DNA of 38,128 bases from Candidatus Omnitrophota bacterium (GTDB taxonomy: Bacteria; Omnitrophota; Gorgyraeia; Gygaellales; Profunditerraquicolaceae), in NCBI GenBank assembly GCA_016867095.1, contig VGKK01000002.1, positions 1-38,128 of the forward strand, read 5' to 3'. Made by a program: the position numbers and the translations under genes. Of this stretch, positions 3,842 to 38,128 are shown one piece after another. A model generated the notes under the pieces. That model worked only from the letters and a program-made list of their open reading frames with translations, made no database searches and had not been told where the DNA came from. The first letter of the stretch is position 1, and each line of letters begins with the position of its first letter.

Positions 3842-3947
3842 GTCAAAACTCAAAAGTCAAAAGTAAAAAGTTCAAGGCAAAATTCAAAAGTTTTTAATTT
3901 TTACTTTTTACTTGCACTTTTGACTTTTTACTTTTACCTTTTGACTT
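3841..3947. repeat. 107-bp imperfect palindrome built from CAAAAG/CTTTTG words, copy 1, filling the whole purH-folC spacer
   Basis: The left arm agtcaaaactcaaaagtcaaaagtaaaaag... is about 80% complementary to the right arm ...ctttttacttttaccttttgactt. It is nearly identical to 34537-34645. Confidence 0.85.
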
Positions 3948-3949
3948 AA

Positions 3950-5266
3950 ATGACCTACCCAGAAACTATTAAATACCTAGAATCTTTTATTAACTACGAA
4001 AAGATTCCCGCCTACCCTTATAAAGAGTCCTTAAAATTAGAGCGCGTCAAGGGGTTCCTGGCCGCGATAGGCAACCCCCAGGATAGCCTGAAGTGCATTC
4101 ATATTGCCGGCACCAAAGGCAAAGGCTCAACCTGCGCCTTTCTTACCTATATATTGCGCCAAGCCGGCTTTAAGGTAGGGTTATACACTTCCCCGCATTT
4201 GTCGGATTTCCGCGAGAGAATCCGTATATTAAGTCACAAGTCACAAGTCACAAGTCACAAGTTAAGTAGAGAATTTGAAGGGATGATCTCACAAAAGGAG
4301 ATTAGTGATTTAGTCGCCAGATTAAGGCCGGCGATAGAGGATTACAACAGAAATTCCAAATACGAGAGGCTTTCTTTTTTTGAGGTTTATACTGCCCTGG
4401 CCTTTGTTTATTTTAAAGAAAAAAAAGTGGATTTCGCGGTTTTAGAGACCGGTTTAGGCGGGAGGCTGGATGCGACTAATGTGGTAAATCCTTTAGTCGC
4501 GGTAATCACGCCCATCAGTTATGAGCACACACAGAAACTGGGCAATACCTTAAAAGAAATCGCCCAGGAAAAGGCAGGAATCATTAAGCCGCAAGTCCCG
4601 ATAGTTATTAGCGCTCCGCAGGAAAAAGAGGCTGGTAAGGTCATCCGGCAGAGGTGCAAAGACGCCGGAGCCAAATTATACGAAATAAAGCAAAATAAAT
4701 ATCCCCGTTTTAAAATAAAACTGCTGGGAGAGCATCAACAGATTAATGCTAATGTAGCTGCGCAGGCGGCCAGGGCCTTGGGTTCTTGCGGGATTAAAAT
4801 TAGTGAAAAGACAATTCAAAAAGGCCTCTGTCAGACGGTTTGGCCAGGACGCCTGGAAATAGTTGCCAGAGAGCCTTTGGTAGTTTTAGATGGCGCGCAA
4901 AATGTAGCCTCGGCAGTTGCTTTAAAAAAAGCAGTCCAGGATAATTTCAAATATAAGGAATTAATTTTGGTTTTGGGAATTTCCAGCGATAAAGATATTA
5001 AGGGAGTTTGCCGGCAATTATGCCCTTTGGCAGATAAGATTATTTTGACGCGAGCGAATAATCCGCGGGCAACAAAGGTGGATGAGCTTGAGAAAATTAT
5101 TAAGTCACAAACTAGGTGTCAGGTGCCACAGATTATTATGACCGAAAATGCGAGAGAGGCAATGAATAAGGCCAGGGGTATAGCTCATAAGGAAGATTTA
5201 GTATTAGTAACGGGGTCATTGTTTGTAGTAGGCGAGGCGCGCAAATTGCTAAAAAAACTTGACTGA
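3950..5266 (+). CDS. folC: Folylpolyglutamate synthase / dihydrofolate synthase
   Basis: 438 aa with the Mur-ligase P-loop HIAGTKGKGST, plus TSPHL..F.ERIRI and LDGAQN motifs. Confidence 0.9.
   Translation: MTYPETIKYLESFINYEKIPAYPYKESLKLERVKGFLAAIGNPQDSLKCIHIAGTKGKGSTCAFLTYILRQAGFKVGLYTSPHLSDFRERIRILSHKSQVTSHKLSREFEGMISQKEISDLVARLRPAIEDYNRNSKYERLSFFEVYTALAFVYFKEKKVDFAVLETGLGGRLDATNVVNPLVAVITPISYEHTQKLGNTLKEIAQEKAGIIKPQVPIVISAPQEKEAGKVIRQRCKDAGAKLYEIKQNKYPRFKIKLLGEHQQINANVAAQAARALGSCGIKISEKTIQKGLCQTVWPGRLEIVAREPLVVLDGAQNVASAVALKKAVQDNFKYKELILVLGISSDKDIKGVCRQLCPLADKIILTRANNPRATKVDELEKIIKSQTRCQVPQIIMTENAREAMNKARGIAHKEDLVLVTGSLFVVGEARKLLKKLD
4231..4262 (+). repeat. Tandem 7-mer (aagtcac) x4.5 inside the folC reading frame
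   Basis: aagtcac aagtcac aagtcac aagtcac aagt, translated as SHKSQVTSHK. It lies within an apparent extra segment after the conserved ERIRI motif. Confidence 0.9.
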
Positions 5267-7563: not shown

Positions 7564-9669
7564 ATGAAATTGACGGATAATGAAATAAGAAACATTACAA
7601 AATATCTGGAATCGGGAAAACCGCTTCCTGATCAGTATCGTTTCCTGCTTTTTGAGGAAAAACGCGAGGTAGAGCTGGTTTGGAACGGCAAGACCAGTGA
7701 AGTCTGCAACGCGATATTGCCGTTCCAGGTGATTGAGCAGGTTGATGAGCCGCGCAAGGAGAAAACGCAGGCCGAGTGGCAGGGGACGTTATTTGACACA
7801 AGCGGACGCCAGATCAAGGGTTGGACAAATAAGCTTATCTGGGGTGATAACAAATTGATCTTGAGCAGTCTTAAGAACGGGCCTCTGCACGATGAGATAG
7901 AAAAAGATGGCGGAATAAAGTTGATCTATATTGATCCGCCGTTTGACGTCGGCACAGATTTTTCCATGAATATTGAAATCGGCGATGAGCAATTTACCAA
8001 AGCGCCATCAGTGTTGGAAGAGATCGCATATCGGGATACCTGGGGAAAGGGCGCGGATAGTTTTATCGCCATGATTTATGAGCGGCTAACGCTGATGCGG
8101 GATTTATTGGCGCAAGATGGAAGTATTTATGTGCATTGCGATTATAGAGTTGATTCTTATATTCGGTGTATTCTAGATGAACTATTTGGTAAGCCAAATT
8201 TAAGAAATGAAATTATTTGGTGTTATACGGCTCCGTCAAATGTGTCCGGAAATTATCCGCGTAAACACGACGTTATTTATTTCTATTCGAAAAGCTCTAA
8301 GGTTACTTTAAATTTAGATGACATTAGAATTCCTTATTCTGCAGAAAGTCTTAGTCGTGCAAATCGGAATGTGATTAAGAAAGGCGGAACAATATTTGAT
8401 GACGTTAAATTAAATGATAAAGGGAAGGTGCCAGAAGATTGGTGGGCAGATGTTAATCCGGCATCTCGTTATCCGACAGAACATTTAGGTTATGATACCC
8501 AGAAATCCGAAAAACTTCTAGAACGGATTATTAAAGCTTCTTCAAACGAAGGAGATATTGTAGCCGATTTCTTTTGCGGCTCCGGGACAACTATGGCAGT
8601 GGCCGAGAAGTTAGGGCGAAAATGGATCGGCGCTGACCTTGGCAAGTTTGCCATTCATACGACGCGCAAGCGGATGATTTCGGTTCAGCGCGAGCTTAAA
8701 GAAGCAGGCAAGGATTACCGCGCGTTTGAGATCTTAAACCTCGGGAAATATGAACGCCAGCATTATATCGGCGTAAACCCGAATTTGCGGGACAAGGAAA
8801 AAGAGAAACAACTTGCCAAGCGTGAGAAGGAGTTCCTTGAGCTTATTCTTCGGGCTTACCGTGCTGAGAAAGCTGAAGGATTCAAAACGCTGCACGGAAA
8901 GAAATCCGGCCGAATGGTTGCGGTCGGGCCGATCAATTTACCGGTAACGAAAGATTTTGTTGATGCTGTTATAAACGAATGCATAGAAAAGAAGATTACA
9001 AAAGCAGATATACTGGCTTTTGAATTCGCGATGAGTGTTATTTCTACCGAGAAGACCAGAGAAAATAGGGTAATTCAAGAAGAAGCCAAGTCAAAAGGTA
9101 TTGACCTTGCCCTGAAGTATATCCCCCGGGATGTCTTTGACAAGCGCGCAGTGGAGAAGAGCCAGGTTGTTTTTCACGATGTGTCTTATATTGAGGTTAA
9201 GCCGATCGTTCAAAAGAAAGGCGCGGCCGTTGAGCTGGTAGATTTCAGCGTTTATTACAATCAGGATACCATCGCTAATGTTGAGGCATCGCTTAAGAAC
9301 GGCGGGACCAAGATTTATGTTGAGAACGGCAAGATCATCAAAGTTACCAAAGATGAGAAGGGAATTATAAAGCGAGAAGCCTTGACTAAGAAATGGACGG
9401 ACTGGATTGATTACTGGGCAATTGATTTTGATTTTGAAAGCAAAAAAGAAATTGTCCGGGTCAAGAAAGATAACGGCTCGGTTGAAGAAGCCTGGACCGG
9501 CGACTATGTTTTTGAGAACGAATGGCAGTCTTTCCGCACCAAGAAAGACCGGACAATCGAGCTCAAAAGCGCATTCCATGAATGCCCCAAAGGCCGCCGC
9601 AAAATCGCGGTTAAAGTGGTGGATATATTCGGGAATGATACAATGAAAGTGATTGAGGTCAATATATAG
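7564..9669 (+). CDS. mod: Type III restriction-modification DNA methyltransferase (Mod, beta-class N6A/N4C)
   Basis: 701 aa. Motif IV IYIDPPFDVG lies upstream of motif I FFCGSGTTMAVAEKLGRKWIGADL (order IV-TRD-I). The N-terminus is LLFEEKREVELVWNGK...LPFQVIE. The gene sits in an operon with a res helicase-nuclease. Confidence 0.9.
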   Translation: MKLTDNEIRNITKYLESGKPLPDQYRFLLFEEKREVELVWNGKTSEVCNAILPFQVIEQVDEPRKEKTQAEWQGTLFDTSGRQIKGWTNKLIWGDNKLILSSLKNGPLHDEIEKDGGIKLIYIDPPFDVGTDFSMNIEIGDEQFTKAPSVLEEIAYRDTWGKGADSFIAMIYERLTLMRDLLAQDGSIYVHCDYRVDSYIRCILDELFGKPNLRNEIIWCYTAPSNVSGNYPRKHDVIYFYSKSSKVTLNLDDIRIPYSAESLSRANRNVIKKGGTIFDDVKLNDKGKVPEDWWADVNPASRYPTEHLGYDTQKSEKLLERIIKASSNEGDIVADFFCGSGTTMAVAEKLGRKWIGADLGKFAIHTTRKRMISVQRELKEAGKDYRAFEILNLGKYERQHYIGVNPNLRDKEKEKQLAKREKEFLELILRAYRAEKAEGFKTLHGKKSGRMVAVGPINLPVTKDFVDAVINECIEKKITKADILAFEFAMSVISTEKTRENRVIQEEAKSKGIDLALKYIPRDVFDKRAVEKSQVVFHDVSYIEVKPIVQKKGAAVELVDFSVYYNQDTIANVEASLKNGGTKIYVENGKIIKVTKDEKGIIKREALTKKWTDWIDYWAIDFDFESKKEIVRVKKDNGSVEEAWTGDYVFENEWQSFRTKKDRTIELKSAFHECPKGRRKIAVKVVDIFGNDTMKVIEVNI

Positions 9670-9673
9670 TTTT

Positions 9674-9727
9674 TCTATAGGGAATATATGAGAAAATCGC
9701 CGCATCTATAGAAAATATATGAAAAAT
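9674..9727. repeat. Two ~23-bp direct repeats in the mod-ATPase spacer
   Basis: tctatagggaatatatgagaaaat (9674-9697) and tctatagaaaatatatgaaaaat (9705-9727). They end 12 nt before the ATG at 9740. Confidence 0.7.
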
Positions 9728-9739
9728 AGGGGGTGATAT

Positions 9740-11254
9740 ATGAAAAAGAGTTCTTATGGAAAAAATTTGTTCGGACTTCATTTGAGCCAGGAATTGGAAG
9801 ATTTCCTTAGAGATACAAACCCTTGGTGGAGTGGTAAACCTATGCGGCGGCTTCCGGAATTCCGCCGCTGGCTATTTGATCACACTTTACAACGCTTAAA
9901 AACAGGGCTTGCCCCTGTGATCGTTTTGCGCGGCCCGCGTCAGGTGGGCAAGACAACATTACAAGAGCAGATCATTCTTCATTTATTAAGCCAAGAAAAT
10001 GTTGATCCTAAAAATATTTTTCGCGTTCAATTTGACGAGATCCCTTCCCTGAAAGGATTAAAAGACCCTATTTTAAGCATATGCCGCTGGTATCAGGAAA
10101 GGATTTTAGGAGAAACATTTAATGAATCAATAAATAAAAACCGGCCGGTCTATATTTTTTTTGATGAAGTGCAGAATTTGACGGATTGGTCTCCTCAGAT
10201 TAAATCGTTAGTCGATCTGCATTCCGTAAGAATTCTTTTAACCGGGAGCTCGGCGCTGCGAATCGAACAGGGGCGGGACAGCCTTGCAGGCAGGATCACA
10301 ACTTTAGAGCTTGGAACGCTTCTGTTAAGGGAAATCGCGGAATTGCAAAATTTCGAGAAAATTGTCCCTATGATTGTGTTAAATGGATTAAAGGAATTGA
10401 CACAGAAAGATTTTTGGGCGGATGTTCGGACAAACGGCGAGAAATACAAAGAAGTGCGTGATAAAGCATTCAATCTATTTTCTGAACGGGGAGGTTACCC
10501 GGTTGCCCAAGTGCGGATAGACAGGCCATGGGGAGAAGTTTCCGATCAGCTCAATGAAACAGTTATAAAACGCGTTATTCAACATGATTTGAGGATCGGG
10601 GAGCGGGGAAGGAAGCGGGACCAGGATTTACTAGAAGAGCTTTTTCGTTTATGCTGCAGGTATATCGGTCAAGCTCCCGCACAGGCCATGTTTATTACAG
10701 AACTGCGCAAGCCTTTATCCGCTAACGTGGGCTGGAACAGGGTCTTGGCCTATTTAAGATTTCTCAATAATACGCTGTTGATTAGATTGATAGATCCGCT
10801 TGAAATTAGAATTAAAAAAAGGAAAGGCCGCCCGAAAATTTGTCTTTGTGACCATGCATTGCGCGCAAGCTGGCTGCAGGAGTTAATCCCGTTTTCTCCG
10901 CAAGGATTAGCTTCTGCCCCGCATTTAAGCGATCTGGCCGGGCATATTGCGGAAAGCGTGCTTGGATATTTTTTGGCAGGCATTCCCAATCTTGACGTGG
11001 CTTGGTTTCCAGAGCGCGCCGATGAGCCCGAAGTCGATTATGTCGTTTCTGTCGGAGAATTTAGGATTCCTATTGAAGTGAAATACCGAAGACACATTGA
11101 TTCTCATAGGGATACCATAGGACTGCGCTCATTTATAGAAAAAACTGTTTATAATGCTCCTTTCGGCATATTGGTCACTTTAAATGACGATACGATTATC
11201 GATGATCCAAGAATTGTCACCGTGCCTTTGTCGTCATTTTTGCTTCTTCGGTAA
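9740..11254 (+). CDS. AAA+ ATPase of the COG1373 type (AAA_14 plus a DUF4143-like C-terminal PD-(D/E)xK-like domain), embedded between mod and res
   Basis: 504 aa with an NPWW motif, Walker A GPRQVGKTT, Walker B IFFDEVQN, and a C-terminal EVDYVV...IPIEVK (D...ExK) pattern. Confidence 0.8.
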   Translation: MKKSSYGKNLFGLHLSQELEDFLRDTNPWWSGKPMRRLPEFRRWLFDHTLQRLKTGLAPVIVLRGPRQVGKTTLQEQIILHLLSQENVDPKNIFRVQFDEIPSLKGLKDPILSICRWYQERILGETFNESINKNRPVYIFFDEVQNLTDWSPQIKSLVDLHSVRILLTGSSALRIEQGRDSLAGRITTLELGTLLLREIAELQNFEKIVPMIVLNGLKELTQKDFWADVRTNGEKYKEVRDKAFNLFSERGGYPVAQVRIDRPWGEVSDQLNETVIKRVIQHDLRIGERGRKRDQDLLEELFRLCCRYIGQAPAQAMFITELRKPLSANVGWNRVLAYLRFLNNTLLIRLIDPLEIRIKKRKGRPKICLCDHALRASWLQELIPFSPQGLASAPHLSDLAGHIAESVLGYFLAGIPNLDVAWFPERADEPEVDYVVSVGEFRIPIEVKYRRHIDSHRDTIGLRSFIEKTVYNAPFGILVTLNDDTIIDDPRIVTVPLSSFLLLR

Positions 11255-11263
11255 AAACAGTTT

Positions 11264-13939
11264 ATGGCCATACATCCAAAATTACCTAAGTCACCTTACG
11301 AAATAATTAAACCTGAATTACGCTGGTTCCCGGCTGATGAGATGCTGCGGGAAAAGGGCTACGATAAGCTTCTGCCGCCTTTAGTCGCTAAACTACGCAA
11401 GCTGGTTGAGGCATGGCGAAACTCTGGTTATGACGGCGCAAGCGCCACGAGCAAGGCGCTTCTCAATTGGTGGTTTAAGACCGACCACCCCAAGTATAAC
11501 GCGGATGGCGAAGAGTATCTTTTTCAATATTATTTTGCTCAACGAGAATCGGTGGAAACGATTATTTATCTTTATGAAGTCGCCAGGATCGAAGATAAAT
11601 ATGACCTCCTGCGGTTTGACAGCTCCGGGATCTTGACGCCGGGAATGTTTGCGGAAGACTGGCGCCGGTTTGTGATCAAAATGGCCACGGGCAGCGGAAA
11701 AACAAAGGTCCTTAGCCTTGTTTTAGCCTGGAGCTATTTCCATAAAATGTATGAGACCGATTCTATGTTAGCGAGGAATTTTCTTGTTATTACACCCAAT
11801 ATTATCGTGTTAGACCGTATCAAAGCGGATTTTGACGGTTTGAAGATATTCTTTGATGATCCCGTGGTGCCGGAGAATGGTTATGCCGGGCAGAACTGGA
11901 AAGATGATTTTCAGGTTACGCTCCATATTCAGGACGAGATCGGAACCATTGGAAAAACAGGCAATATTTTTCTTTCTAATATCCACCGTGTTTATGAGAG
12001 CGGCGATGTTACGCCCTCTTTTGATGATGTGGATACGTCGGATTACTTTCTCGGTAAAAAACCGGTCGGCGCGACAAATGAATCAAAGATCGATCTTTCC
12101 GAGATCGTGCGAAATGTTGATGAGCTGGTTGTATTAAATGACGAAGCGCACCATATTCACGATGAAAAACTCGCCTGGTTTAAATCTATAGAGGATATTC
12201 ATAACCGCCTAAAGATGAAAGGTTCTGAGCTGTCGCTCCAGGTGGATGTAACCGCCACACCGCGGCACAATAACGGCGGTATATTTGTCCAGACGGTTTC
12301 CGATTACCCGCTTGTTGAAGCGATCCATCAGGATGTTGTGAAACACCCTCTTGTTCCGGATTCGGCCAGCCGGGCTAAGCTGGTTGAAAAGAAGAGCTCA
12401 AAATATACCGAGAAATATGAGGATTATATTCATCTTGGTTACCTTGAATGGAAAAAAGTCCATGAAGAGCATTCAAAACTTGGCAAGAAAGCCGTCCTAT
12501 TTATTATGACCGATGATACGCGTAATTGTGATGAGGTCGCGGCATACCTGGAGGGAAGATACCCGGAATTTAAAGAGGCGGTTTTGATTATTCATACCAA
12601 AAATAACGGCGATATCGCAGAGAGCGTAACCGGTAAAAAGAAAGAAGAACTGGATGTTTTGCGCGAAGCGGCCAATAAAATCGACCGGCCGGATAATCCG
12701 TATAAGGTTATAGTTTCGGTTCTAATGCTGAAAGAAGGCTGGGATGTCCGCAATGTAACGACAATTGTCGGGCTTCGGCCTTATTCGTCGGCAAGCAATA
12801 TTTTGCCTGAGCAGACCATGGGGCGGGGTTTGCGCCGGATGTATCGCGACGCAAATCTTCAGGAAATGGTCAGCGTTGTCGGGACGGATGCTTTTATGGA
12901 TTTTGTAGAATCGGTAAAAAGTGAAGGCGTTGAACTTGAACATCGCAAAATGGGCGAAGGAAGTGCCCCTAAGGCGCCGCTTGTTGTTGAGGTCGATAAA
13001 GAAAATTTGAAGAAAGATATTGAGAAGCTCGATATTCAAATTCCTGTATTAACCGCTCGTATTTATCGCGAATATAAGAATCTTTCTATTCTCAACGTGA
13101 GCGATTTTGGCCATGCAAAGGTTAAAGTCCGGCAATTTTCCGAAGAAGAAAAACGCGAGATCGTTTTTAAAGATATCGCATCCGATGAAATATCTCATAA
13201 AACCGAGCTGGATTCTGATTTTACAGCGAATTATCAAAGTGTGGTCGGATATTTTACTCAGGTCATTATGAAAGACCTGAGGTTGGTGGGCGGGTATGAT
13301 ATCCTCTATGGCAAGGTAAAAGAATTTATCCAGAATTATCTCTTTGAGAATGTCGTAAATTTAGAAGATCTGAACATTCTTAGGAATTTGTCCGAGCTCG
13401 AAGCCACCAAAACCATAATCGAAACTTTTAAGCGAAAGATTAACGATCTTACCGTTCTGGACAAGGGGGAAGCAGAGATCAAGGATTACATAAAAATAAG
13501 CCAATGCCGCCCCTTTGTAGTTAAAGAGCAGGGTTATCTTATGCCTCAAAAGAGCGCGTTTAATAAGATAGTGGGGGACAGCCATTTTGAACTTGAGGTA
13601 GCAGCTTTCTTGGAGAAATGCGATGATATTATTTCATATGCGAAAAATTATTTTTCTGTCCACTTCAAGATAGATTACCGTGATGCCGATGGTGAGATAA
13701 AAGATTATTATCCGGACTTCTTCGTAAAATTCTCGCAGAATGATCTCTATATTGTTGAAACAAAGGGCCGTGAAGACCTAGGTGATCCTCTTAAAATCGC
13801 CCGCCTCAAACAATGGTGCGAAGACGTGAATAGAGCGCAAAGCGATGTAAAATGCCGCTGTCTTTATATCAAACAAGAGCAGTTTGATAAATATAAGCCG
13901 CAAAATTTCTCGGAAGTAATAAAGAATTTCGCGCCATAA
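11264..13939 (+). CDS. res: Type III restriction enzyme Res subunit (SF2 helicase plus C-terminal PD-(D/E)xK nuclease)
   Basis: 891 aa with Walker A MATGSGKT, a DEAH box (LNDEAHHI), and helicase motifs LKEGWDV and QTMGRGLR. The C-terminus has YYPDFFV...YIVETKG. It starts 9 nt after the ATPase gene. Confidence 0.9.
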   Translation: MAIHPKLPKSPYEIIKPELRWFPADEMLREKGYDKLLPPLVAKLRKLVEAWRNSGYDGASATSKALLNWWFKTDHPKYNADGEEYLFQYYFAQRESVETIIYLYEVARIEDKYDLLRFDSSGILTPGMFAEDWRRFVIKMATGSGKTKVLSLVLAWSYFHKMYETDSMLARNFLVITPNIIVLDRIKADFDGLKIFFDDPVVPENGYAGQNWKDDFQVTLHIQDEIGTIGKTGNIFLSNIHRVYESGDVTPSFDDVDTSDYFLGKKPVGATNESKIDLSEIVRNVDELVVLNDEAHHIHDEKLAWFKSIEDIHNRLKMKGSELSLQVDVTATPRHNNGGIFVQTVSDYPLVEAIHQDVVKHPLVPDSASRAKLVEKKSSKYTEKYEDYIHLGYLEWKKVHEEHSKLGKKAVLFIMTDDTRNCDEVAAYLEGRYPEFKEAVLIIHTKNNGDIAESVTGKKKEELDVLREAANKIDRPDNPYKVIVSVLMLKEGWDVRNVTTIVGLRPYSSASNILPEQTMGRGLRRMYRDANLQEMVSVVGTDAFMDFVESVKSEGVELEHRKMGEGSAPKAPLVVEVDKENLKKDIEKLDIQIPVLTARIYREYKNLSILNVSDFGHAKVKVRQFSEEEKREIVFKDIASDEISHKTELDSDFTANYQSVVGYFTQVIMKDLRLVGGYDILYGKVKEFIQNYLFENVVNLEDLNILRNLSELEATKTIIETFKRKINDLTVLDKGEAEIKDYIKISQCRPFVVKEQGYLMPQKSAFNKIVGDSHFELEVAAFLEKCDDIISYAKNYFSVHFKIDYRDADGEIKDYYPDFFVKFSQNDLYIVETKGREDLGDPLKIARLKQWCEDVNRAQSDVKCRCLYIKQEQFDKYKPQNFSEVIKNFAP

Positions 13940-14031: not shown

Positions 14032-15483
14032 ATGCAAAATATAAATTTAACCGATACTATTGCCGCTGTGGCCACCGCCGTCGGAGAATCCGGCATCGGG
14101 ATCGTGCGGATAAGCGGCAAGGACGCCTTAAGGGTAGCGGATAAGATTTTTCTTTCTAAGGACGGCAAGAGGGCTTCTACTTTTAAGGCTTATACCACGC
14201 ATTATGGATGGATTGTTAGTCGGTTATCCGGTAAGCCGGTAAGCCGGTTAGCCAGTTTAAGCCGGCACACCGGCACACCGGCACACCGGCACACCGAAAT
14301 AATTGATGAAGTTCTCTTGACGGTGATGCGCGGCCCAAAAAGTTATACCAAAGAAGACGTTGTGGAAATCAACTGCCACGGAGGCATTGTGGCTTTGCGG
14401 GCGGCCTTGGATTTAGTTTTGGAAAACGGCTGCCGCCTGGCTGAGCCGGGTGAATTTACCAGGCGCGCCTTCTTAAACGGCAGAATTGACCTGGCGCAGG
14501 CCGAGGCAGTCCTGGATATTATTCGCGCCAGGACTGATTCAGCGTTAAAAATAAGCGCGGAGCAGTTAAGGGGAGGTGTATCTAAGCAGATTAATAAAAT
14601 GAGGAACCGCCTCTTGGAATTAGCTTCGCACTTAGAGGCAGATATTGATTTTCCCGGCGAGGAGCTTGATGCTGCCGGGCCTCAGCAGATTAGGGAAGGT
14701 TTGCAAGAAGTAGGCCGCCAATGCCGGGATATCCTGGAGGGGGCCAGGCGCGGCCGGATATTCCGCGAGGGCATACAGGTAGTAATCTGCGGCAAGCCCA
14801 ATGTAGGAAAATCCTCGCTGTTAAACGCGCTTTTAAAACAGGAGCGCTCTATCGTTACGCCGGTAGCCGGAACTACCCGCGATACCATTGAGGAGGTTAT
14901 TGATATTAAGGGTATCCCGGTCAGGATTGTGGATACCGCCGGGATCATTGAGCCCAGGGATTTGGTGGAAAAAAAGGCGGTCTTGCGGTCCAAAAGATAC
15001 ATAGGTTTAGCCGACCTGGTAATCCTTCTATTGGATGGGAGTAGGCCACTGGCCAAAGACGATGAAGCCCTGGCCAGAAAATTAAAAAAGAAGGCCATTA
15101 TCGCCGTGGTCAATAAAATAGACTTAAAACAAAAGATTGATAAAGGCAAAATTTTAAAAAGATTCCCGAGCGTAGTGGGAATTTCAGCCAAAAAACTAAA
15201 AAACATTGATTTATTGGAGCAGGCAATCGCTAATTTAGTCTATGCCGGAGGGCTCAGGACCCCCGAATCGGCATTAGTCAGCAACCTGCGCCATATTGAG
15301 GCGGTCAGGCACGCAGAAAAATTTATTGCGCAAGCCCTAAATTCATTAGATAATGAATTATCTTTAGAATTCATCGCCCAGGAGATAAGGGAAGCCCTGG
15401 GTTATTTGGATGAGATATTGGGCAGGAGGTTTTCGGAAGAACTGCTGGATAAAATCTTCAGCGAGTTTTGCGTAGGCAAATAG
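14032..15483 (+). CDS. mnmE: tRNA modification GTPase MnmE (TrmE)
   Basis: 483 aa. The N-terminus is [22 protein letters not shown], followed by [24 protein letters not shown]. The G domain has [13 protein letters not shown] and NKID. The terminal CVGK matches the MnmE C(I/V)GK motif. Confidence 0.95.
14221..14296 (+). repeat. Two adjacent 8-bp tandem arrays inside the mnmE reading frame
   Basis: cggttatc cggtaagc cggtaagc cggttagc (14221-14252), a 10-nt linker, then cggcacac x4 (14263-14294). The translation is [25 protein letters not shown]. Confidence 0.9.
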
Positions 15484-15492
15484 ATCTATCAG

Positions 15493-15534
15493 CTCAAGAC
15501 CCGGTCTTGAGACGGTTGGCAAGACCGGGTCTTG
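15493..15534. repeat. Twin short palindromes in the mnmE-folE spacer
   Basis: ctcaagac-ccg-gtcttgag (15493-15511) and caagac-cgg-gtcttg (15520-15534). No T-tract follows either one. Confidence 0.6.
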
Positions 15535-15548
15535 GAGGTAGGGAGGGA

Positions 15549-17093
15549 ATGGATAAGAAAAAAATTGAAAAGGCAATCAGGGAGCTGCTCGGGGCTATCG
15601 GCGATGACCCCGGGCGTAAAGACCTGCAGGCAACCCCCCGGCGCGTGGCAGAGATGTATGAAGAGATATTTTCCGGCCTGCGCCAGGACCCGCGCAAGGA
15701 ATTAGAGGTTATTTTAGACCAGAAACACGACGAAATAATTTTATTAAAGGGCATTCCCCTGTATAGTTGCTGTGAGCACCATCTTTTACCGTTTATCGGT
15801 AAGGCGCACATCGCCTATATTCCTAAAAACGGCCGCGTCACCGGCTTAAGTAAGCTCGCCCGGGTGGTGGATATTTTAGCCAAGCGGCCGCAAATCCAGG
15901 AAAGATTAACCACGCAGATTGCCGAGATTATTATGTCCAAACTTAAACCGCAGGGTTGTATGGTGGTTATTGAAGCAGAACATATGTGTTATGATGATAA
16001 AACAGAAGTTTTAACGGCTGACGGTTGGAAATTATTTCAGAATCTAAAAGAGAGCGATAAAATAGCCCAAGTAGATTCGGTAACGAGAAACCTATCATTT
16101 ATAACACCAAAAAATCCCTTTTCATATAACTATAATGGTATGATGGTAGCAATTAAAAGCTTATCCGTAGATTTGTTAGTTACACCGGACCACAGGATTT
16201 ACTATTCTTCCGAATGGGATTTTTATAATGGCCATAATAATTGGCAGATATCCCAAGCCCAGGAATTAATGAAAAGATATATAATCATTCCAAGGGCATG
16301 TAATTGGATAGGCAGTAATCCTGGAAAAATACGAATTGGGAAATATACTATAGATTTTGAATATTTTGTGCAAATTTTTGGAATTTGGGTTAGCGAAGGA
16401 TGTACAACGCAGATAGATAAGAATAGAAGAAAGTTTGTAGTTGTTACTCAGAGTCCAAAATCAAAATATTTCCTAGATATTAAGAAACTATTTAGCAAAT
16501 TGAAAGTCAAATATATTCAGTGTAAGTCCGGAAAGGCAGTTCAATTCAGGATAGAGGATGACGATTTTTTTAATTATTTTAGACAATTTGGCAAGTCCGG
16601 AGATAAATACATACCCGACGTTATTAAAAATTCGACTCAGAAGTTTTTGAGGTTATTTTTAAGTTGGTATATAAAAGGCGACGGGCATATCAAAAAAAAT
16701 AAGGCAATACATTTTGTTTCTAAATCGCAGAGACTCATGGATGATTTGCAAGAAGTTTGTATTAAGCTAGGCATAGGTTGCACAAAGCAGAACAATAAAA
16801 ATTATTTCAGAATGGAGACTCACAGAACAAAATCTGGCAAAGATAAATGGTATTCAAGGTTGAGGCCTTGTAATTTTTCACTCAGAGAATATAAAGGAAA
16901 AGTCTTTTGCGTATCTGTGCCTAAAGGGCTAATTTTAGTAAGACGGAATGGAAAGGTAGCGATATCTGGAAATTGTATGTCTATGCGGGGGGTAAAAAAA
17001 CCGGGGACACTGACCATCACTTCGGCGGTAAGAGGGGTATTTAAGAAAAACGAGAAGACCCGCGCCGAGGCCCTGACCTTGATTAAGTCGTAA
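15549..17093 (+). CDS. folE: GTP cyclohydrolase I (FolE) precursor interrupted by an intein
   Basis: ATG at 15549 is preceded by ggaggtagggaggga. The exteins read [14 protein letters not shown]...[23 protein letters not shown]...MVVIEAEHM | [24 protein letters not shown].... Joined, they total 185 aa, which is normal FolE length. Confidence 0.9.
15987..16973 (+). mobile_element. Intein (329 aa) with a LAGLIDADG homing-endonuclease domain
   Basis: Block A is [14 protein letters not shown] (Cys1) and block B is VTPDH. The two dodecapeptide motifs are [13 protein letters not shown] and [15 protein letters not shown]. The C-terminus is VFCVSVP...[14 protein letters not shown] followed by a +1 Cys. 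GC falls to ~27% (16/60 at 16081-16140) versus 58% (35/60 at 15841-15900) in the N-extein. Confidence 0.85.
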
Positions 17094-21296: not shown

Positions 21297-21438
21297 TAGC
21301 AGATGGCGCTTAGATCTCTCTATCCAAGCTCCGGTATTGTATTGCTTCTGACAAATGCTCCGAACTAACTTCTTAACTGTTTCCTTAATCTTTAATGAAT
21401 AAACTGTTGGCATTTGGGTATTACCAAGAAAATTCTTA

Positions 21439-21466
21439 TTGCAATATTACTTTTTCGTGGTATACT
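21439..21466 (+). promoter_or_regulatory. Candidate promoter for the second AAA+ ATPase gene (would give a near-leaderless mRNA)
   Basis: TTGCAA (21439-21444), a 16-nt spacer ending in TGg, then TATACT (21461-21466). The ATG at 21474 is only 7 nt downstream. Confidence 0.3.
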
Positions 21467-21473
21467 TTTATCA

Positions 21474-22637
21474 ATGATTAAACGCATTGATTTATATAAG
21501 AAAATACGGTTTGCATTTCGTTATGGGCGTATCGTCGCTCTATTAGGTCCTCGCCAGTGCGGAAAAACAACCCTCGCGCGCCAATTTATTTCCCCTGATT
21601 CCACGCATTATTTCGATCTTGAAGACCCTGTCGGTGCAGCGAAGCTTGCGGAACCCATGAATGTTTTATCTAAACTCAAAGGGGCAGTTGTCATTGACGA
21701 GATTCAACGTCAACCCAGTTTATTCCCTATTCTGCGCGTTCTTGCTGACCGTAAGCCTCTGCGGGCAAGATTCCTTATTTTGGGTAGCGCCTCTCCGGAA
21801 TTGATTAAACATTCTTCAGAATCTCTGGCGGGAAGACTAGCCCGCGTTACTATGGCAGGATTTACTCTTTCTGAAGTAGGATTATCGGTTTCCAGTCGGC
21901 TTTGGCTTCGCGGCGGTTTCCCTCGTTCATTCTTAGCAAAAACAGAAAAAGACAGCGTCAGCTGGAGGAAAGATTTTATCCAGAGTTTTGTAGAAAGGGA
22001 TCTGCCTGCGTACGGCATGACGCTACCGCCTCTTACGTTATCAAGGCTTTGGGTTATGGTAGCTCATTATCACGGACAACTTTTAAATTCAAGCGAAATA
22101 GCACGCTCTTTAGGAATCAATGAACTCACAGTAAAAAGATACTTGGATGTTTTAAGTGGTGTTTTCATGCTCAGGCAATTACAGCCTTGGCATGTGAATA
22201 TCAAGAAACGCCAGGTAAAGGCACCTAAGATTTATATCCGCGATACGGGTATTCTCCATAGCCTATTAGGCATACGTACTATGGATGACCTATTAGCCAA
22301 TCCAAAATATGGCGCATCATGGGAGGGATATGTTATTGAGCAAATCATCAATTTTGTTGAACCCGATGAGGTTTATTTCTGGGCCACACATAACGGCGCA
22401 GAGATTGATCTGGTATTTTCGAAAGGCGGGCGAATGTATGGCGTTGAATGCAAGCGAGCTGATGCTCCGCTTATGACGCCCTCTATGAGGATAGCGCTTA
22501 AGGACTTAAAACTGGCACGTATCGCCGTAATCTACCCAGGCAAACAGCGATATTTACTGCATAAGCAAATTGAAGTTGTGCCGTTTGAAGCGGTAGTTGA
22601 TGGCTTTAGCGGAATATTCCCCAAAACTACACGTTGA
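21474..22637 (+). CDS. AAA+ ATPase, COG1373 type (AAA_14 plus DUF4143-like), paralog of 9740-11254
   Basis: Walker A GPRQCGKTT, Walker B VVIDEIQR, and a C-terminal EIDLVF...YGVECK (D...ExK) pattern. The ATG at 21474 is preferred over the TTG at 21414. Confidence 0.8.
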   Translation: MIKRIDLYKKIRFAFRYGRIVALLGPRQCGKTTLARQFISPDSTHYFDLEDPVGAAKLAEPMNVLSKLKGAVVIDEIQRQPSLFPILRVLADRKPLRARFLILGSASPELIKHSSESLAGRLARVTMAGFTLSEVGLSVSSRLWLRGGFPRSFLAKTEKDSVSWRKDFIQSFVERDLPAYGMTLPPLTLSRLWVMVAHYHGQLLNSSEIARSLGINELTVKRYLDVLSGVFMLRQLQPWHVNIKKRQVKAPKIYIRDTGILHSLLGIRTMDDLLANPKYGASWEGYVIEQIINFVEPDEVYFWATHNGAEIDLVFSKGGRMYGVECKRADAPLMTPSMRIALKDLKLARIAVIYPGKQRYLLHKQIEVVPFEAVVDGFSGIFPKTTR

Positions 22638-24483: not shown

Positions 24484-24495
24484 CTCCTCAAATGA

Positions 24496-24580
24496 AGCCG
24501 AGACTTACGGAGCGAACACCCGGCTGTATTTGAACAGCCGGTGTGCCGCTTGTGTGGCAAGCGAACGTAAGTCTCTGGCT
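24496..24580. repeat. Conserved multi-hairpin element 'X', copy 2
   Basis: The outer stem agccgagacttacg/cgtaagtctctggct encloses cacccggct..agccggtgtg and gccgcttgtgtggc. The core aligns with 2098-2185. Confidence 0.7.
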
Positions 24581-24699
24581 GAATTTGACCCAGCACTAAT
24601 TTTTATAAACTCTTATCTCTATATCTTAAGAGTTGATGCCAATGCAGCCTCTATGAGATATCTTTAAGCGTTGTATAAAATTAGTGCTGGGTAAGTTCG
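24581..24699. repeat. ~118-bp TIR element, copy A (inverted relative to copies B and D)
   Basis: The termini are gaatttgacccagcactaattttt ... aaaattagtgctgggtaagttcg. The reverse complement of its core aligns along its length with copies B and D. Confidence 0.85.
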
Positions 24700-24740
24700 G
24701 GCACATAACTTGCGTCACCCAGGCTCCGCAAGTTATGCCC
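24699..24740. repeat. Flanking hairpin (gggcacataacttgcg ... cgcaagttatgccc)
   Basis: The arms are 16 nt and 14 nt; the innermost 12 nt pair perfectly and the outer ends pair with a 2-nt bulge. It directly abuts TIR element A. Confidence 0.75.
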
Positions 24741-24792
24741 TCACTTCTAATAGACGTAAGAGGCGGTAAAATCTAACTAAGAATTTTAATGA

Positions 24793-24836
24793 AGCCACAG
24801 CTTAGCGAGCAATAAGCGAAGCTAAGCTGTTTGGCT
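24793..24836. repeat. Flanking hairpin (agccacagcttagc ... gctaagctgtttggct)
   Basis: An inverted repeat that directly abuts the left end of TIR element B. It has the same ..tggct|gaat junction as element A. Confidence 0.75.
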
Positions 24837-24957
24837 GAATTAACCCAGCACTAATTTTATGAAACGCTTGAGATAGCTCATAGGCGTTGCTTCCGAATCG
24901 ACCCCCCCTATAAGATAGAGATAAAACTCTATAAAAATTAGTGCTGGGTTTAATTCG
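24837..24957. repeat. ~118-bp TIR element, copy B
   Basis: gaattaacccagcactaatttt ... aaaattagtgctgggtttaattcg. The 17-nt TIR core is perfectly complementary, and there is an inner hairpin atagag-ataaaa-ctctat. Confidence 0.85.
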
Positions 24958-24998
24958 CACAGTAACTTACGTTCACTTCGTTTCGTAAGTTACGTGCT
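24957..24998. repeat. Flanking hairpin (gcacagtaacttacg ... cgtaagttacgtgc)
   Basis: An inverted repeat with the ACTTACG/CGTAAGT core. It abuts the right end of element B. Confidence 0.75.
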
Positions 24999-25168
24999 CA
25001 TTAAAAATCCTTGCCCCGTTAGAAATTTTATGCTAATCTATAAACGTATTTCTAACGGGATTTGCTTTTTGCCCATTCCGATTATATAATCTAAAATTAC
25101 GGTAATGAGGAACAAAACCTATTGTGGGACTTAAGGAAAGAAAAAAAGCCTGCTGCGGGAGCTGACTA

Positions 25169-25859: not shown

Positions 25860-26678
25860 GTGAAGAAGAAATTGTGGTTAATCATCATTGCCTGTTTTCT
25901 GGCAGGTCTAATAGTCCTGGCGTTTGTTAATCTCAGGAAAAATAGGGCGCCCTTAATTGCCAAGACCGGCGGCGCTGTTTCCGCGTCCAGCTTACTTAGC
26001 CAGGCCAGGGCTTTGGAGGCCAAGGGCAATCTCCTGGAAGCCAAAGCAACGTATCAAGAGCTGGTTAATAATTTTTCCAATTCCGGCGAGATGATGAATT
26101 GGCAGAAGAAACTGGAAGATATAAATATAAAGTTATTATTCAGCCCCGCTATAACCCTCAACAGCCAGCTTTACCAAATCAGGGCGGGTGATACCCTGGC
26201 GAAGATTGCCAGGGAATTTAAGACCACGGTGGAGCTGATTAAAAAAAGCAACAGCCTCGCCGACGATAAAATTATCCCAGGCAGGAAGATTAAGGTATGG
26301 ACAGCGCCTTTTAGCATATTGATAGATAAATCTCAAAATACGCTCATCTTAAAGACTGATGAAGAGATTTTTAAGACTTATATTGTTTCCACGGGTGCAA
26401 ATAATTCCACTCCCGTCGGTAATTTCAGGATTACCAATAAGCTTTCCAACCCCACCTGGTTTAAGGCAGGCGCGGTAGTCCTCGCGGACAGCCCGGAGAA
26501 TATCTTGGGCACGCGCTGGCTGGGTTTTGACCTGGCTGGTTACGGAATACACGGCACTACCGAGCCGCAAAGCCTGGGTAAGCAGGTTACCCAGGGCTGC
26601 GTGCGCATGGCTAATGCCGAGGTTGAAGAACTATATACCATCGTCCCCGTGGGCACAGAAGTTACCACCGTTGATTGA
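25860..26678 (+). CDS. L,D-transpeptidase (YkuD domain) with a LysM domain and an N-terminal membrane anchor
   Basis: GTG start after gggagg. The LysM segment is YQIRAGDTLAKIAREFKTTVELIKKSNSL. The YkuD catalytic motif is YGIHGT......G...T.GCVRM. Confidence 0.85.
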   Translation: MKKKLWLIIIACFLAGLIVLAFVNLRKNRAPLIAKTGGAVSASSLLSQARALEAKGNLLEAKATYQELVNNFSNSGEMMNWQKKLEDINIKLLFSPAITLNSQLYQIRAGDTLAKIAREFKTTVELIKKSNSLADDKIIPGRKIKVWTAPFSILIDKSQNTLILKTDEEIFKTYIVSTGANNSTPVGNFRITNKLSNPTWFKAGAVVLADSPENILGTRWLGFDLAGYGIHGTTEPQSLGKQVTQGCVRMANAEVEELYTIVPVGTEVTTVD

Positions 26679-26682
26679 GTGA

Positions 26683-26727
26683 GGACATAACTTATGGAGC
26701 TCGAAGAGCTACATAAGTTATGTGTCC
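26683..26727. repeat. Flanking hairpin (ggacataacttatg ... cataagttatgtgtcc)
   Basis: It begins 5 nt after the ldt stop codon, preceded by gtgag, and abuts TIR element C. Confidence 0.75.
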
Positions 26728-26846
26728 GAACTCATCCAGCACTTATTTTTGCAATTGTGCTGGAGTTACAAATCAAGCGATAGAGCGAAACTATTCCTTG
26801 AGTTAACTCAAGTGCTTTTTTAAAAATAAGTGCTGGATTAAATTCG
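26728..26846. repeat. ~118-bp TIR element, divergent copy C
   Basis: gaactcatccagcacttattttt ... aaaaataagtgctggattaaattcg. Both arms carry matching substitutions relative to A, B and D. There is an inner perfect palindrome cttgagttaactcaag. Confidence 0.8.
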
Positions 26847-26873
26847 CAGACGCCGGAGGTATTAAAAATATAA

Positions 26874-26925
26874 GCAGCTATAACTTACGTCGTCCGCCTA
26901 TGGCGGACTTCCGTAAGTTATCTGC
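26874..26925. repeat. Flanking hairpin (gcagctataacttacg ... cgtaagttatctgc) with a nested gtccgcc-tat-ggcggac hairpin
   Basis: An inverted repeat that ends 9 nt before the accA ATG. Confidence 0.75.
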
Positions 26926-26934
26926 TCATTTAAT

Positions 26935-37923: not shown

Positions 37924-37970
37924 CCGCCGTTTTCGGTTGTAAACCCGGCGACGGATGTTATAATAAGTGA

Positions 37971-38003
37971 GGCCACGACTTACGTTCCGTAAGTCGTATG
38001 GCC
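37971..38003. repeat. Flanking hairpin (ggccacgacttacg-ttc-cgtaagtcgtatggcc), preceded by gtgag
   Basis: An inverted repeat with the ACTTACG core that abuts TIR element D. Confidence 0.75.
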
Positions 38004-38121
38004 GAACTTATCCAGCACTAATTTTATGAAACGCTTAAAGTTAGCTCATAGGGGTTGCTATGGCATCAACCCTTATCAGATAAAGATAAGGCTTTATAAA
38101 AATTAGTGCTGGGTTAATTCG
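38004..38121. repeat. ~118-bp TIR element, copy D (its right-flank hairpin is cut by the window end)
   Basis: gaacttatccagcactaatttt ... aaaattagtgctgggttaattcg. It is collinear with copy B and has inner hairpins gggttg-ctatggcat-caaccc and ataaag-ataagg-ctttat. Confidence 0.85.
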
Positions 38122-38128
38122 CGCAATA

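Follow-up and report, generated by a model that had tools for sequence, protein, structure and literature searches.

What are the short elements with inverted ends that recur in the intergenic DNA of an Omnitrophota bacterium, and which enzyme could move them? The question arises in a stretch of 38,128 nucleotides (contig VGKK01000002.1, positions 1 to 38,128; "the window" means this whole stretch), where the spacer between comM and a DUF212 gene holds two such elements and two more lie at other sites. Each of the four is a composite of a repetitive extragenic palindromic (REP)-like hairpin, a foldback of ~100 nt and an inverted REP-like hairpin. We consider it probable that they are members of a nuclease-associated (GIY-YIG) foldback family set in a REP-like scaffold, the window copies being gene-less and non-autonomous. 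The ends of the foldback family are constrained and strictly tied to the gene of a conserved minimal GIY-YIG nuclease. That this nuclease itself moves the elements, which would make them a new class, is a tentative step beyond these observations.

The link to the nuclease is seen in copies outside the window. The copy at locus L080 is 266 nt long and holds a truncated GIY-YIG open reading frame (ORF), whose relatives fall into 43 protein clusters, most of them full-length (76-79 aa). Full-length elements measure 260-266 bp, with a GIY-YIG ORF of 75-79 aa lying exactly between the ends, and at 10 of 10 distinct loci examined in Omnitrophota and the Candidate Phyla Radiation (CPR) these ends, or co-varying versions of them, enclose the ORF; their wider consensus is ACCSAGCAC.... 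Across the ORF-bearing loci the start codon is found 0-6 nt inward of the left end, and the stop codon falls within the right end or abuts it. The six Omnitrophota loci (L080, L099, L100, L105, L187 and L194) share the same ends, with hairpin modules outside them, in the layout ...GAATTTGAC-CCAGCACTAATTTT, then ATG ... TTGTAA, then AATTAGTGCTGG-GTTCAATTC..., the stop codon falling within the right end. CPR loci carry end variants, ACCGAGCACTCAATTT/AAATTGAGTGCTCGGT in L196 and L206, AACCGAGCACATAATA/TATTATGTGCTCGGTT in L213 and ACCGAGTACTTAAATTATTT/...TTTAAGTGCTTGGTT in L201. Across all loci collected, the spacing between exact ends is either no more than 125 nt or 260-266 nt, and ORF-bearing and gene-less copies are both present in one metagenome-assembled genome (MAG).

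The protein matches PF01541 (E = 6e-10), and the GIY-YIG alignment columns YxY, YYGYT, RR, EH and RERE are conserved among its relatives. It is a bare catalytic domain, without a DNA-binding domain, and the nearest solved structures are UPF0213 proteins (PDB 1zg2, 1ywl), weakly matched. Among three Omnitrophota copies of the ORF dN/dS is 0.08-0.14 at dS 0.9-1.4, and their ends are identical, which places the ends under constraint and the protein under strong purifying selection. At 9 of 9 scorable sites the ORF points in the same direction as the genes on both sides, for example nuoB/nuoC, coaE/rho and pilB/pilC. The Omnitrophota subfamily has few members, 13 among 1.84 billion cluster representatives at E <= 1e-10; a distant branch at 48% identity, P0043, is a CPR family of 621 clusters at E <= 1e-5 from Falkowbacteria, Staskawiczbacteria, Sungbacteria and Parcubacteria.

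Within the window, the 15-nt ends CCCAGCACTAATTTT/AAAATTAGTGCTGGG and their variants occur as 8 half-sites that make four properly spaced pairs, against 0.15 expected from shuffles. The composite units measure ~215-255 bp (A 24491-24745, B 24788-25002, C 26678-26930, D 37966 to past the window end) and are made up as follows.

24491..24585, plus strand: comM-proximal hairpin module of composite A, AATGA...GAATT on the G.A strand, from inverted repeat and fold
24588..24692, minus strand: central foldback A, 16-bp ends ACCCAGCACTAATTTT/AAAATTAGTGCTGGGT, 73-nt core without ORF
24589-24603/24677-24691: end pair A, exact CCCAGCACTAATTTT/AAAATTAGTGCTGGG, span 24589-24691
24694..24745, minus strand: distal hairpin module of composite A, AGTTC...TCACT on the plus strand, which is AGTGA...GAACT on the minus strand
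24749..24777, unstranded: host landmark AATAGACG...AAAATCTAAC, which adjoins the comM start in relatives; by the empty-site relatives it is the original A-B spacer and not part of an element
24788..24841, plus strand: left hairpin module of composite B, AATGAAGCC-ACAGCTTAGC...GCTAAGCTGT-TT-GGCTGAATT
24843..24949, plus strand: central foldback B, 16-bp ends, 75-nt core without ORF
24844-24858/24934-24948: end pair B, exact CCCAGCACTAATTTT/AAAATTAGTGCTGGG, span 24844-24948
24952..25002, minus strand: right hairpin module of composite B, AATTC...TCATT
26678..26732, plus strand: left hairpin module of composite C, AGTGAGGAC...GTCCGAACT, overlapping the final base of the ldt stop codon
26734..26838, unstranded: central foldback C, ends ATCCAGCACTTATTTT/AAAATAAGTGCTGGAT (compensatory A/T variant), 73-nt core of a different subfamily
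26735-26749/26823-26837: end pair C, variant with A-to-T on both arms, span 26735-26837
26841..26930, minus strand: right hairpin module of composite C, with inserted side sequence and a nested TCCGCC..GGCGGA in the loop, stopping 4 nt before the accA ATG
37966..38008, plus strand: left hairpin module of composite D, AGTGAGGCC...GGCCGAACT, a short form
38010..38114, plus strand: central foldback D, core of the B subfamily
38011-38025/38099-38113: end pair D, variant, span 38011-38113
38116..38128, minus strand: start of the right hairpin module of composite D, AATTCGCGCAATA..., cut by the window end

An earlier note on this DNA had described inverted-end elements A and B and their recurrence at two further sites, and the half-site count agrees with it. 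It was also right that A and B are inverted relative to each other, core A aligning with cores B and D only as the reverse complement (core C differs), and that hairpins of ACTTACG type lie on both sides of each copy. All four copies are so flanked, with ACTTAYG/CRTAAGT or a close variant (CAGCTTAGC/GCTAAGCTG in the left hairpin of B; the right hairpin of D is cut by the window end), and within the window such hairpins occur only beside the four elements. The boundaries it gave hold as regards the presence of ends and hairpins, and are corrected here to 16-bp ends, larger AATGA...GAATT modules and the composite of ~215-255 bp. As it had reported, the window has no transposase: neither a transposase nor an integrase nor a Y1 domain is present in its 29 large ORFs. 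Its failure to recognise a family is matched by Rfam 15, which gives 0 matches in the window at gathering thresholds and below them only chance matches to miRNA hairpins. Composite B folds as three consecutive hairpins under DNA parameters (z = -11.3 against dinucleotide shuffles) and composite A does so under RNA parameters (z = -11.7 against the same kind of shuffles), the proximal module of A having two nested small hairpins in its apical loop at ~24517-24562.

The conserved foldback end is 16 bp long, ACCCAGCACTWATTTT, and the stem runs on by two more co-varying pairs (A-T/T-A/G-C, then C-G/G-C). Among the matches listed (98 loci), the W of the left arm is complementary to the W of the right arm in 105 of 105 copies, 54 as A/T and 51 as T/A; the search pattern for paired ends had left both W positions free. 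Deeper in the foldback, pairing decays into AT-rich hypervariable filler of near-constant length, ~70-76 nt, and the central element with its 16-bp ends and no ORF comes to 101-107 bp.

Scanning one genome per species with the paired-end pattern places the ends at no fewer than 98 genome loci, so that the copies elsewhere for which the earlier note proposed to look do exist. Among the matches listed, 69 are labelled Candidatus Omnitrophota, 9 are labelled Planctomycetes yet have the same modules, 13 are CPR (Saccharibacteria, Paceibacterota, Parcubacteria and Nomurabacteria), 2 come from one complete Cloacimonadales chromosome, 1 each from Phycisphaerae and Altarchaeum, and 3 are unclassified; the central unit has spread between phyla. 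Single genomes can hold many, at least 22 copies in MAG JAUYCX01 and at least 14 in MAG JBFMEB01. The four window copies and at least 105 elsewhere are short and multicopy, with inverted ends and no transposase ORF, as in a miniature inverted-repeat transposable element (MITE). Paired-end patterns gave 0 matches in viral contigs, and a phage origin was set aside on that result. Mini hairpins made of the ends alone are found in L034, L042, L052, L095 and L201; L095 has two such minimal versions, ends plus a loop of 4-15 nt, and in the CPR contig L201 a 38-nt mini hairpin whose ends belong to this family, CCAAGCACC...GGTGCTCGG, lies at ~1745-1785, immediately next to the GIY-YIG element.

Two CPR insertions of the ORF-bearing form have features of their own. 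At 1136-1496 of L196 (also in L197 and L198) a 361-bp composite of hairpin, end, GIY-YIG ORF, end and hairpin interrupts a gene for a GT4 glycosyltransferase between two codons, with a TAA stop in its first three bases and an ATG 3 nt past its end; in-silico removal of the composite restores one continuous PF00534 match. A group I or group II intron at this position was rejected, since the boundary nucleotides do not fit and there is no structure of ribozyme size. In L206 (Sungbacteria) the GIY-YIG element lies between direct repeats of ~55 nt, CCCTGGGCTGGGGAATTGAGGGCTTAATCCAGATTTTCGAGCC..., at ~1380-1440 and 1780-1840, and a 23S_rRNA_IVP (PF05635) gene follows ~1 kb downstream.

Filled and empty sites in relatives bear directly on mobility. 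The window's comM-DUF212-ldt-accA block is syntenic with the Omnitrophota MAG contigs L042 and L032 (69-80% amino-acid identity to L042), and a scan with the window DUF212 protein yielded 80 syntenic loci at 70-82% identity. The ldt-accA spacer (site C) is empty, at 1-50 bp, in ~30 of these 80. In L123, L133 and L138 it holds a composite with the same kind of modules around a different central palindrome; in L132 it holds modules with an empty junction, GTCCGAACTTA abutting TTAATTCGCCC; L121 and L122 retain remnants; and L042 has a CCAGCAC-type element with a core of the B/D subfamily, in contrast to the C subfamily of the window. The comM-DUF212 spacer (sites A and B) is empty in 8 relatives, whose sequences define the host landmarks AATAGACG..AAATCTAAC and a promoter-like box CTTGCTTTTT..TATATAAT. 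Relative to these, composite A lies in the interval that separates the comM ribosome-binding site from the first landmark, and composite B in the one that separates the landmark from the promoter box, and the conserved landmarks suggest that copy B sits between two divergent promoters. At site B, L125 has a composite with another central hairpin; at site A, the closest relative, L107, has a composite in the opposite orientation, with the nested-loop module on the other side. CCAGCAC-type elements number 0 in 334 kb of these relatives versus 4 in the 38-kb window, and other central hairpins, with the form A(C/T)CC...GG(A/G)T, number eleven in the same 334 kb. At fixed sites the central unit comes and goes, is exchanged for another and changes orientation, and it tolerates rRNA and operon contexts. 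The occupied and empty states among relatives for which the earlier note called are thus found at both orthologous sites, ldt-accA and comM-DUF212. Most of the syntenic relatives also have an extra gene for a ~190-aa coiled-coil protein (MKNYK...) between comM and DUF212, which the window lacks at 24484-25168.

Which part of the composite is copied can be judged from 60 pairs of elements at different loci with cores at least 80% identical: their cores are on average 89% identical and the flanking 62 nt 63%, which indicates that the flanking hairpins are not in the copied unit. It is therefore the central foldback that is copied, and the modules are a separate, older scaffold that receives it. 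Near-identical gene-less cores at many loci further indicate that the gene-less unit itself multiplies. The flanking modules are an Omnitrophota-specific scaffold that elsewhere holds other central hairpins or none. A target-site duplication based on the Shine-Dalgarno sequence was also considered, GGAGG standing on both sides of several copies, and was rejected because L068 and the window copies do not have it.

The scaffold has a regular architecture. Its frame is AATGA-N4-stem-loop-stem-N(1-2)-N4-GAATT, with a modal length of 51-55 nt, and its consensus is 5'-A(A/G)TGA-N4-[10-bp stem, usually nnAACTTAYG]-GA-[mini-stem, GNA/GNNA loop]-GAA-[stem]-N(1-2)-N4-GAA(T/C)T-3', the mini-stem being for example GCGAAGC or GCGTAAGC. 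GCGAAGC is a classic, very stable mini-hairpin. The consensus reads on the plus strand in the left module and on the minus strand in the right one, so that the composite is palindromic in form. Beside the elements 179 hairpin modules were found; an automatic detector was too strict, caught 1 of the 4 window composites and served for examples only. In 23 gap-free modules standard pairs fill 91.9% of the cells, a share that drops to 70.7% in shuffles and to 19-36% once the partner is shifted by 1-3 columns, and 16 of 21 module pairs show changes on both sides; the modules were picked by self-complementarity, which biases the percentage paired and not the compensatory changes. The closing pairs co-vary as well (AATGA/GAATT with AGTGA/GAACT), and the basal stem reaches into the linker as TCA/TGA, TTT/AAA or GTA/TAC. 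Tandem G.A/A.G is present in 23 of 23 modules, a count that is not independent, the detection pattern having required that motif. These G.A-rich flanking hairpins may be stable DNA or RNA hairpins that define the target, insulate neighbouring genes, or both.

Two other readings of the frame were rejected. A K-turn or box C/D motif does not fit AATGA...GAATT, in which no 3-nt bulge stands beside the tandem G.A and a 1-2-nt bulge sits 4 bp higher in the stem. A leader peptide starting at the ATG in AATGA, which often follows GGAGG, is not a conserved feature: in L099, L100 and window copy D the frame stays open across the hairpin and the left end until a TGA that overlaps the ATG of the GIY-YIG gene; in L105, L187, L194, L089, L071 and window copies A and B it closes early. 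Smaller motifs recur at the module tips. The loop motif GA(A/G)CG-N(1-4)-(A/G)G(C/T)GA(A/G), for example GAGCGAAGCGAA or GAACGAAGTGAA, tops Omnitrophota modules (window 24509-24516 with 24559-24566; 24972-24983) and occurs on one side, at a distance of 15-30 nt, in 4 of the 21 copies from outside Omnitrophota (background frequency 0.09 per kb); it also stands on both sides of an unrelated free GIY-YIG gene in L051, the loci named for it being L011, L034, L054, L084, L196, L201 and L051. Palindromes nested in module loops, at window 24517-24562 and 26893-26908 and at many other loci, are ACCCGGCTG..CAGCCGGGT, TGCCGC..GCGGCA and a recurrent TCCGCC..GGCGGA, the last of which at other loci stands alone or substitutes for whole module stems.

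Beyond Omnitrophota, foldback copies lack flanking modules and lie inside 23S rRNA genes. The complete Cloacimonadales chromosome OY782781.1 has one in both rrn operons (L033 5188-5295 and L081 6984-7091), replacing a hairpin tip between ...GCACCGAAG...GGC and GGGTAG..., an insertion that we take, from the flanking sequence and the layout of the E. coli 23S rRNA, to be at the classical helix-45 site of intervening sequences (IVSs). CPR 23S genes hold foldbacks at L045 328-445, L091 6579-6674 and L095 4707-4839, that of L091 standing for the hairpin at model positions 152-178; one Phycisphaerae 23S gene also holds one, and L040 56-156 is likewise a foldback within a 23S rRNA gene. By the usual definition of an IVS, an insertion at a 23S helix tip with stem-forming ends, the relatives in L033, L081 and L091 qualify and the window copies do not. 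In the Saccharibacteria locus L047 a foldback at 3946-4046 abuts the 5' end of a tmRNA gene (4047), and the sequences outside its ends, GAGGCATTCGC/GGGGATGCCTC, are mutually complementary.

Omnitrophota composites have a marked relation to transcription: of 46 composites, 42 have co-oriented neighbouring genes, 4 have divergent ones and none has convergent ones, and they often end 3 nt ahead of a Shine-Dalgarno sequence. The transcribed strand folds better than its complement, by 2.5 kcal/mol for the centre (p = 0.006) and 4.7 kcal/mol for the whole composite (p = 0.001), which suggests selection at the RNA level.

Taken together with the linked gene, these features allow a mechanism to be proposed. 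The GIY-YIG nuclease would recognise or cut the conserved ends or the empty palindromic junction, and its action would drive copying of its own cassette, through homing-like repair or by cut-and-paste; gene-less copies would be mobilised in trans. A fold of Slx1/UPF0213 type would suit hairpin or cruciform DNA. In RNA, the stem of at least 18 bp probably acts as an IVS-like processing site of RNase III type, because the insertions lie inside transcription units and, in other phyla, in rRNA helices. The start codon of the ORF would be buried at the stem base, and the flanking hairpins would buffer neighbouring genes. So read, the family could be a so far unrecognised class of prokaryotic mobile element, whose sole protein is a 75-79-aa GIY-YIG nuclease between inverted ends (ACCSAGCAC...), which moves as or into DNA hairpins or cruciforms, spawns swarms of gene-less foldbacks and crosses phyla (Omnitrophota, CPR/Patescibacteria, Cloacimonadota, Planctomycetota and possibly Altiarchaeota), a proposal that we hold to be possible and advance with reserve. 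Neither GIY-YIG genes bounded by inverted repeats nor the Omnitrophota composites were found described in a limited literature search.

Several observations weigh against this proposal. The window itself contains no GIY-YIG gene, and we know of no activity or cleavage site for the 75-79-aa protein. Comparison of empty with filled sites gives no consistent target-site duplication, the flanks being T/A-rich with TA or TTAA possible. The gene-less cores have no detectable similarity to the ORF interior (blastn-short gives only 7-8-mers, E >= 1.2); the idea that they are internal deletions of the ORF thus has no support, and their description as derivatives of the ORF form draws only on shared ends and position. 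The reverse history, an ORF invading a pre-existing hairpin, is equally possible. As for the RNA side, the module stems comprise 435 Watson-Crick, 7 G.T and 18 A.C pairs, a near-pure Watson-Crick covariation that fits constraint at the DNA level better than at the RNA level, and a transcription-linked C-to-T mutation bias could give the same strand difference in folding. Errors in MAG binning could also inflate the cross-phylum range for contigs without a marker gene.

The rival that fares best develops that reverse history: the ~100-nt foldback would be a pre-existing host or selfish hairpin that served as the landing site of a free-standing GIY-YIG homing endonuclease gene, the gene-less copies being uninvaded targets. 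The loops of structured elements are a typical location for homing endonuclease genes, and both the dissimilarity of cores and ORF and the mini hairpins made of ends alone would follow naturally. However, the ORF replaces the entire core and leaves no remnants of an inner stem on either side, near-identical gene-less cores at many loci point to a gene-less unit that multiplies in its own right, and the ends are conserved across phyla along with the ORF family. We consider a landing site unlikely and retain the nuclease-associated foldback as the preferred reading.

Improbable, to our judgement, is an account that sees the composites chiefly as cis-acting RNA elements of benefit to the host, hairpins that would process, stabilise or insulate within operon transcripts or 5' untranslated regions much as REP stabilisers or RNase III sites do, with mobility as a side effect. 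The co-oriented placement with none convergent, the better folding of the sense strand, the close approach to Shine-Dalgarno sequences and the presence of the same foldback at rRNA helix tips all speak for a role in RNA. Orthologous sites are nevertheless empty in relatives (ldt-accA in ~30 of 80, comM-DUF212 in 8), so the composite is dispensable for those genes; the central hairpin is replaceable and the composite invertible; copy B apparently lies between divergent promoters; and the stems have almost no G.U pairs and no Rfam match. The structured RNA module once suggested for these elements may hold as a secondary property in that the sense strand folds better, and loses ground through the near-pure Watson-Crick covariation and the inferred position of copy B. 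Terminator or promoter functions of the composites were considered and rejected, with no terminator-like sites and promoter-like matches at chance level.

A third possibility is that the whole composite is of the REP type or a bacterial interspersed mosaic element (BIME), with hairpins mobilised by a REP-associated tyrosine transposase (RAYT, Y1 HUH) whose gene would lie in another part of the genome. The arrangement, a pair of inverted imperfect palindromes around a central linker, does resemble BIME-1, and the high intergenic copy number and DNA-like covariation are as such an element would have them. The GTAG-type tetranucleotide 5' of the palindrome is absent, the module frame being A(A/G)TGA...GAA(T/C)T; the window ORFs include no Y1 domain; unlike REPs, no composite lies between convergent genes; and the enzyme physically linked to the ends is the GIY-YIG nuclease. 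This last result, a minimal nuclease gene between the same inverted ends, also turns against the initial suggestion of mobilisation by RAYT or an IS200/IS605 TnpA, and we regard a RAYT-driven origin as very improbable. That the central foldbacks are integron attC-like recombination sites is hardly credible: they do share with attC a length of 60-140 nt, imperfect palindromes with conserved ends and variable centre, and flanks often like RYYYAAC / GTTRRRY (as in ATTTAAC-CCAGC...GCTGG-GTTAAAT), but the ORF lies inside a palindrome and not between two, an architecture that already contradicts the idea, the neighbours are syntenic housekeeping genes among which only the composite is gained or lost, adjacent copies A and B are oppositely oriented, the window has no integrase, and copies occur inside rRNA genes.

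The nuclease-associated foldback is best described as a mixture of MITE, BIME, rRNA IVS and homing endonuclease gene, the defining features of each being absent or only partly present. With 23S IVSs (helix 25/45; Salmonella, Leptospira, Coxiella) it shares a ~100-nt stem formed from complementary ends at helix tips, including the helix-45 site, and, as with CPR rRNA insertions, a sporadic occurrence across phyla in which some copies have an ORF and CPR GIY-YIG ORFs lie in non-intron insertions. Unlike IVSs, it is mostly found away from rRNA genes, as numerous intergenic copies between REP-like hairpins, and its shared 16-bp end is strictly linked to a GIY-YIG ORF, a combination not met in the limited literature search. 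Enterobacterial BIME/REP sequences also have two inverted imperfect palindromes round a central motif, many intergenic copies, compensatory changes and mosaic modules; they differ from the present frame of AATGA...GAATT with tandem G.A mismatches (theirs is GTAG), its 51-55-nt modules and 100-nt central foldback, its GIY-YIG in place of a Y1 enzyme and its absence between convergent genes. The earlier suggestion of a non-autonomous element like a MITE or BIME accordingly holds for a repeated gene-less family and fails in that the flanking hairpins are outside the copied unit.

Neisseria Correia MITEs are alike in size (100-150 bp), inverted ends, lack of a transposase, copy number and co-transcribed intergenic sites, and by analogy the present element may likewise yield hairpin RNA, a potential RNase III substrate. 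Its same-ended partner encodes a 75-79-aa GIY-YIG domain in contrast to a DDE transposase, its core is hypervariable at near-constant length, and its apparent target is a palindromic junction between hairpins. GIY-YIG nucleases are not, to our knowledge, a class of transposase. GIY-YIG homing endonucleases (T4 Seg, I-TevI) and UPF0213/YhbQ-type proteins share the catalytic domain, and the homing endonuclease genes are likewise inserted between and co-oriented with host genes, multicopy and horizontally spread; the present protein differs in having only 75-79 aa and no DNA-binding domain, and its gene in being bounded by a 16-bp inverted repeat and outnumbered by gene-less hairpin copies. We know of neither the bounding repeat nor the gene-less hairpin copies as a trait of homing endonuclease genes. 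Rickettsia palindromic elements are comparable as palindromic repeats of ~100-150 bp that tolerate insertion in RNA and protein genes; they have no sequence relation to the present family and are translated in frame, whereas the L196 composite adds a stop codon and splits the gene.

If the nuclease truly mobilises the hairpins, the family would be a mobile element in which a minimal GIY-YIG domain replaces the transposase, an arrangement of which we know no prokaryotic example. It would then offer one sequence-defined account of the origin and sporadic spread of rRNA IVSs, and would explain some 23S IVSs of classical type as well as the dense palindromic repeats of Omnitrophota intergenic regions. 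In a survey of CPR rRNA genes every insertion holding a GIY-YIG ORF was something other than a group I or group II intron, and many short (<200 bp) ORF-less insertions lay at known IVS sites, with no mention of inverted repeats (PMC11270868); both kinds of insertion would be explained. The 16-bp ends are also a simple marker for DNA exchange between Omnitrophota and CPR, groups suspected of swapping genes in groundwater, with GIY-YIG proteins among the genes predicted to have been transferred from Patescibacteria (PMC12455944). With a small protein and defined DNA ends, the hypothesis is directly testable in vitro.

Other features of the window are recorded here. Beside the DUF212 promoter-like box, between CCTTGC and TTTGC, a separate 45-bp hairpin at 25015-25059 has a perfect 12-bp stem, CCCGTTAGAAAT...ATTTCTAACGGG; it is not present in the empty-site relatives and so may be another tiny palindromic insertion. 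On the plus strand, 15468-17093 encodes a 541-aa GTP cyclohydrolase I in which PF01227 is matched in two stretches and LAGLIDADG_3 at residues 393-455, and the interruption of this folE gene is probably an intein with a homing endonuclease. An N6/N4 DNA methylase (7564-9669), an AAA_14/DUF4143 ATPase (9740-11254) and a ResIII-type helicase/restriction subunit (11264-13939), all on the plus strand, together look like a type III-like restriction-modification island (7564-13939), and a second AAA_14/DUF4143 gene lies at 21414-22637 on the same strand.

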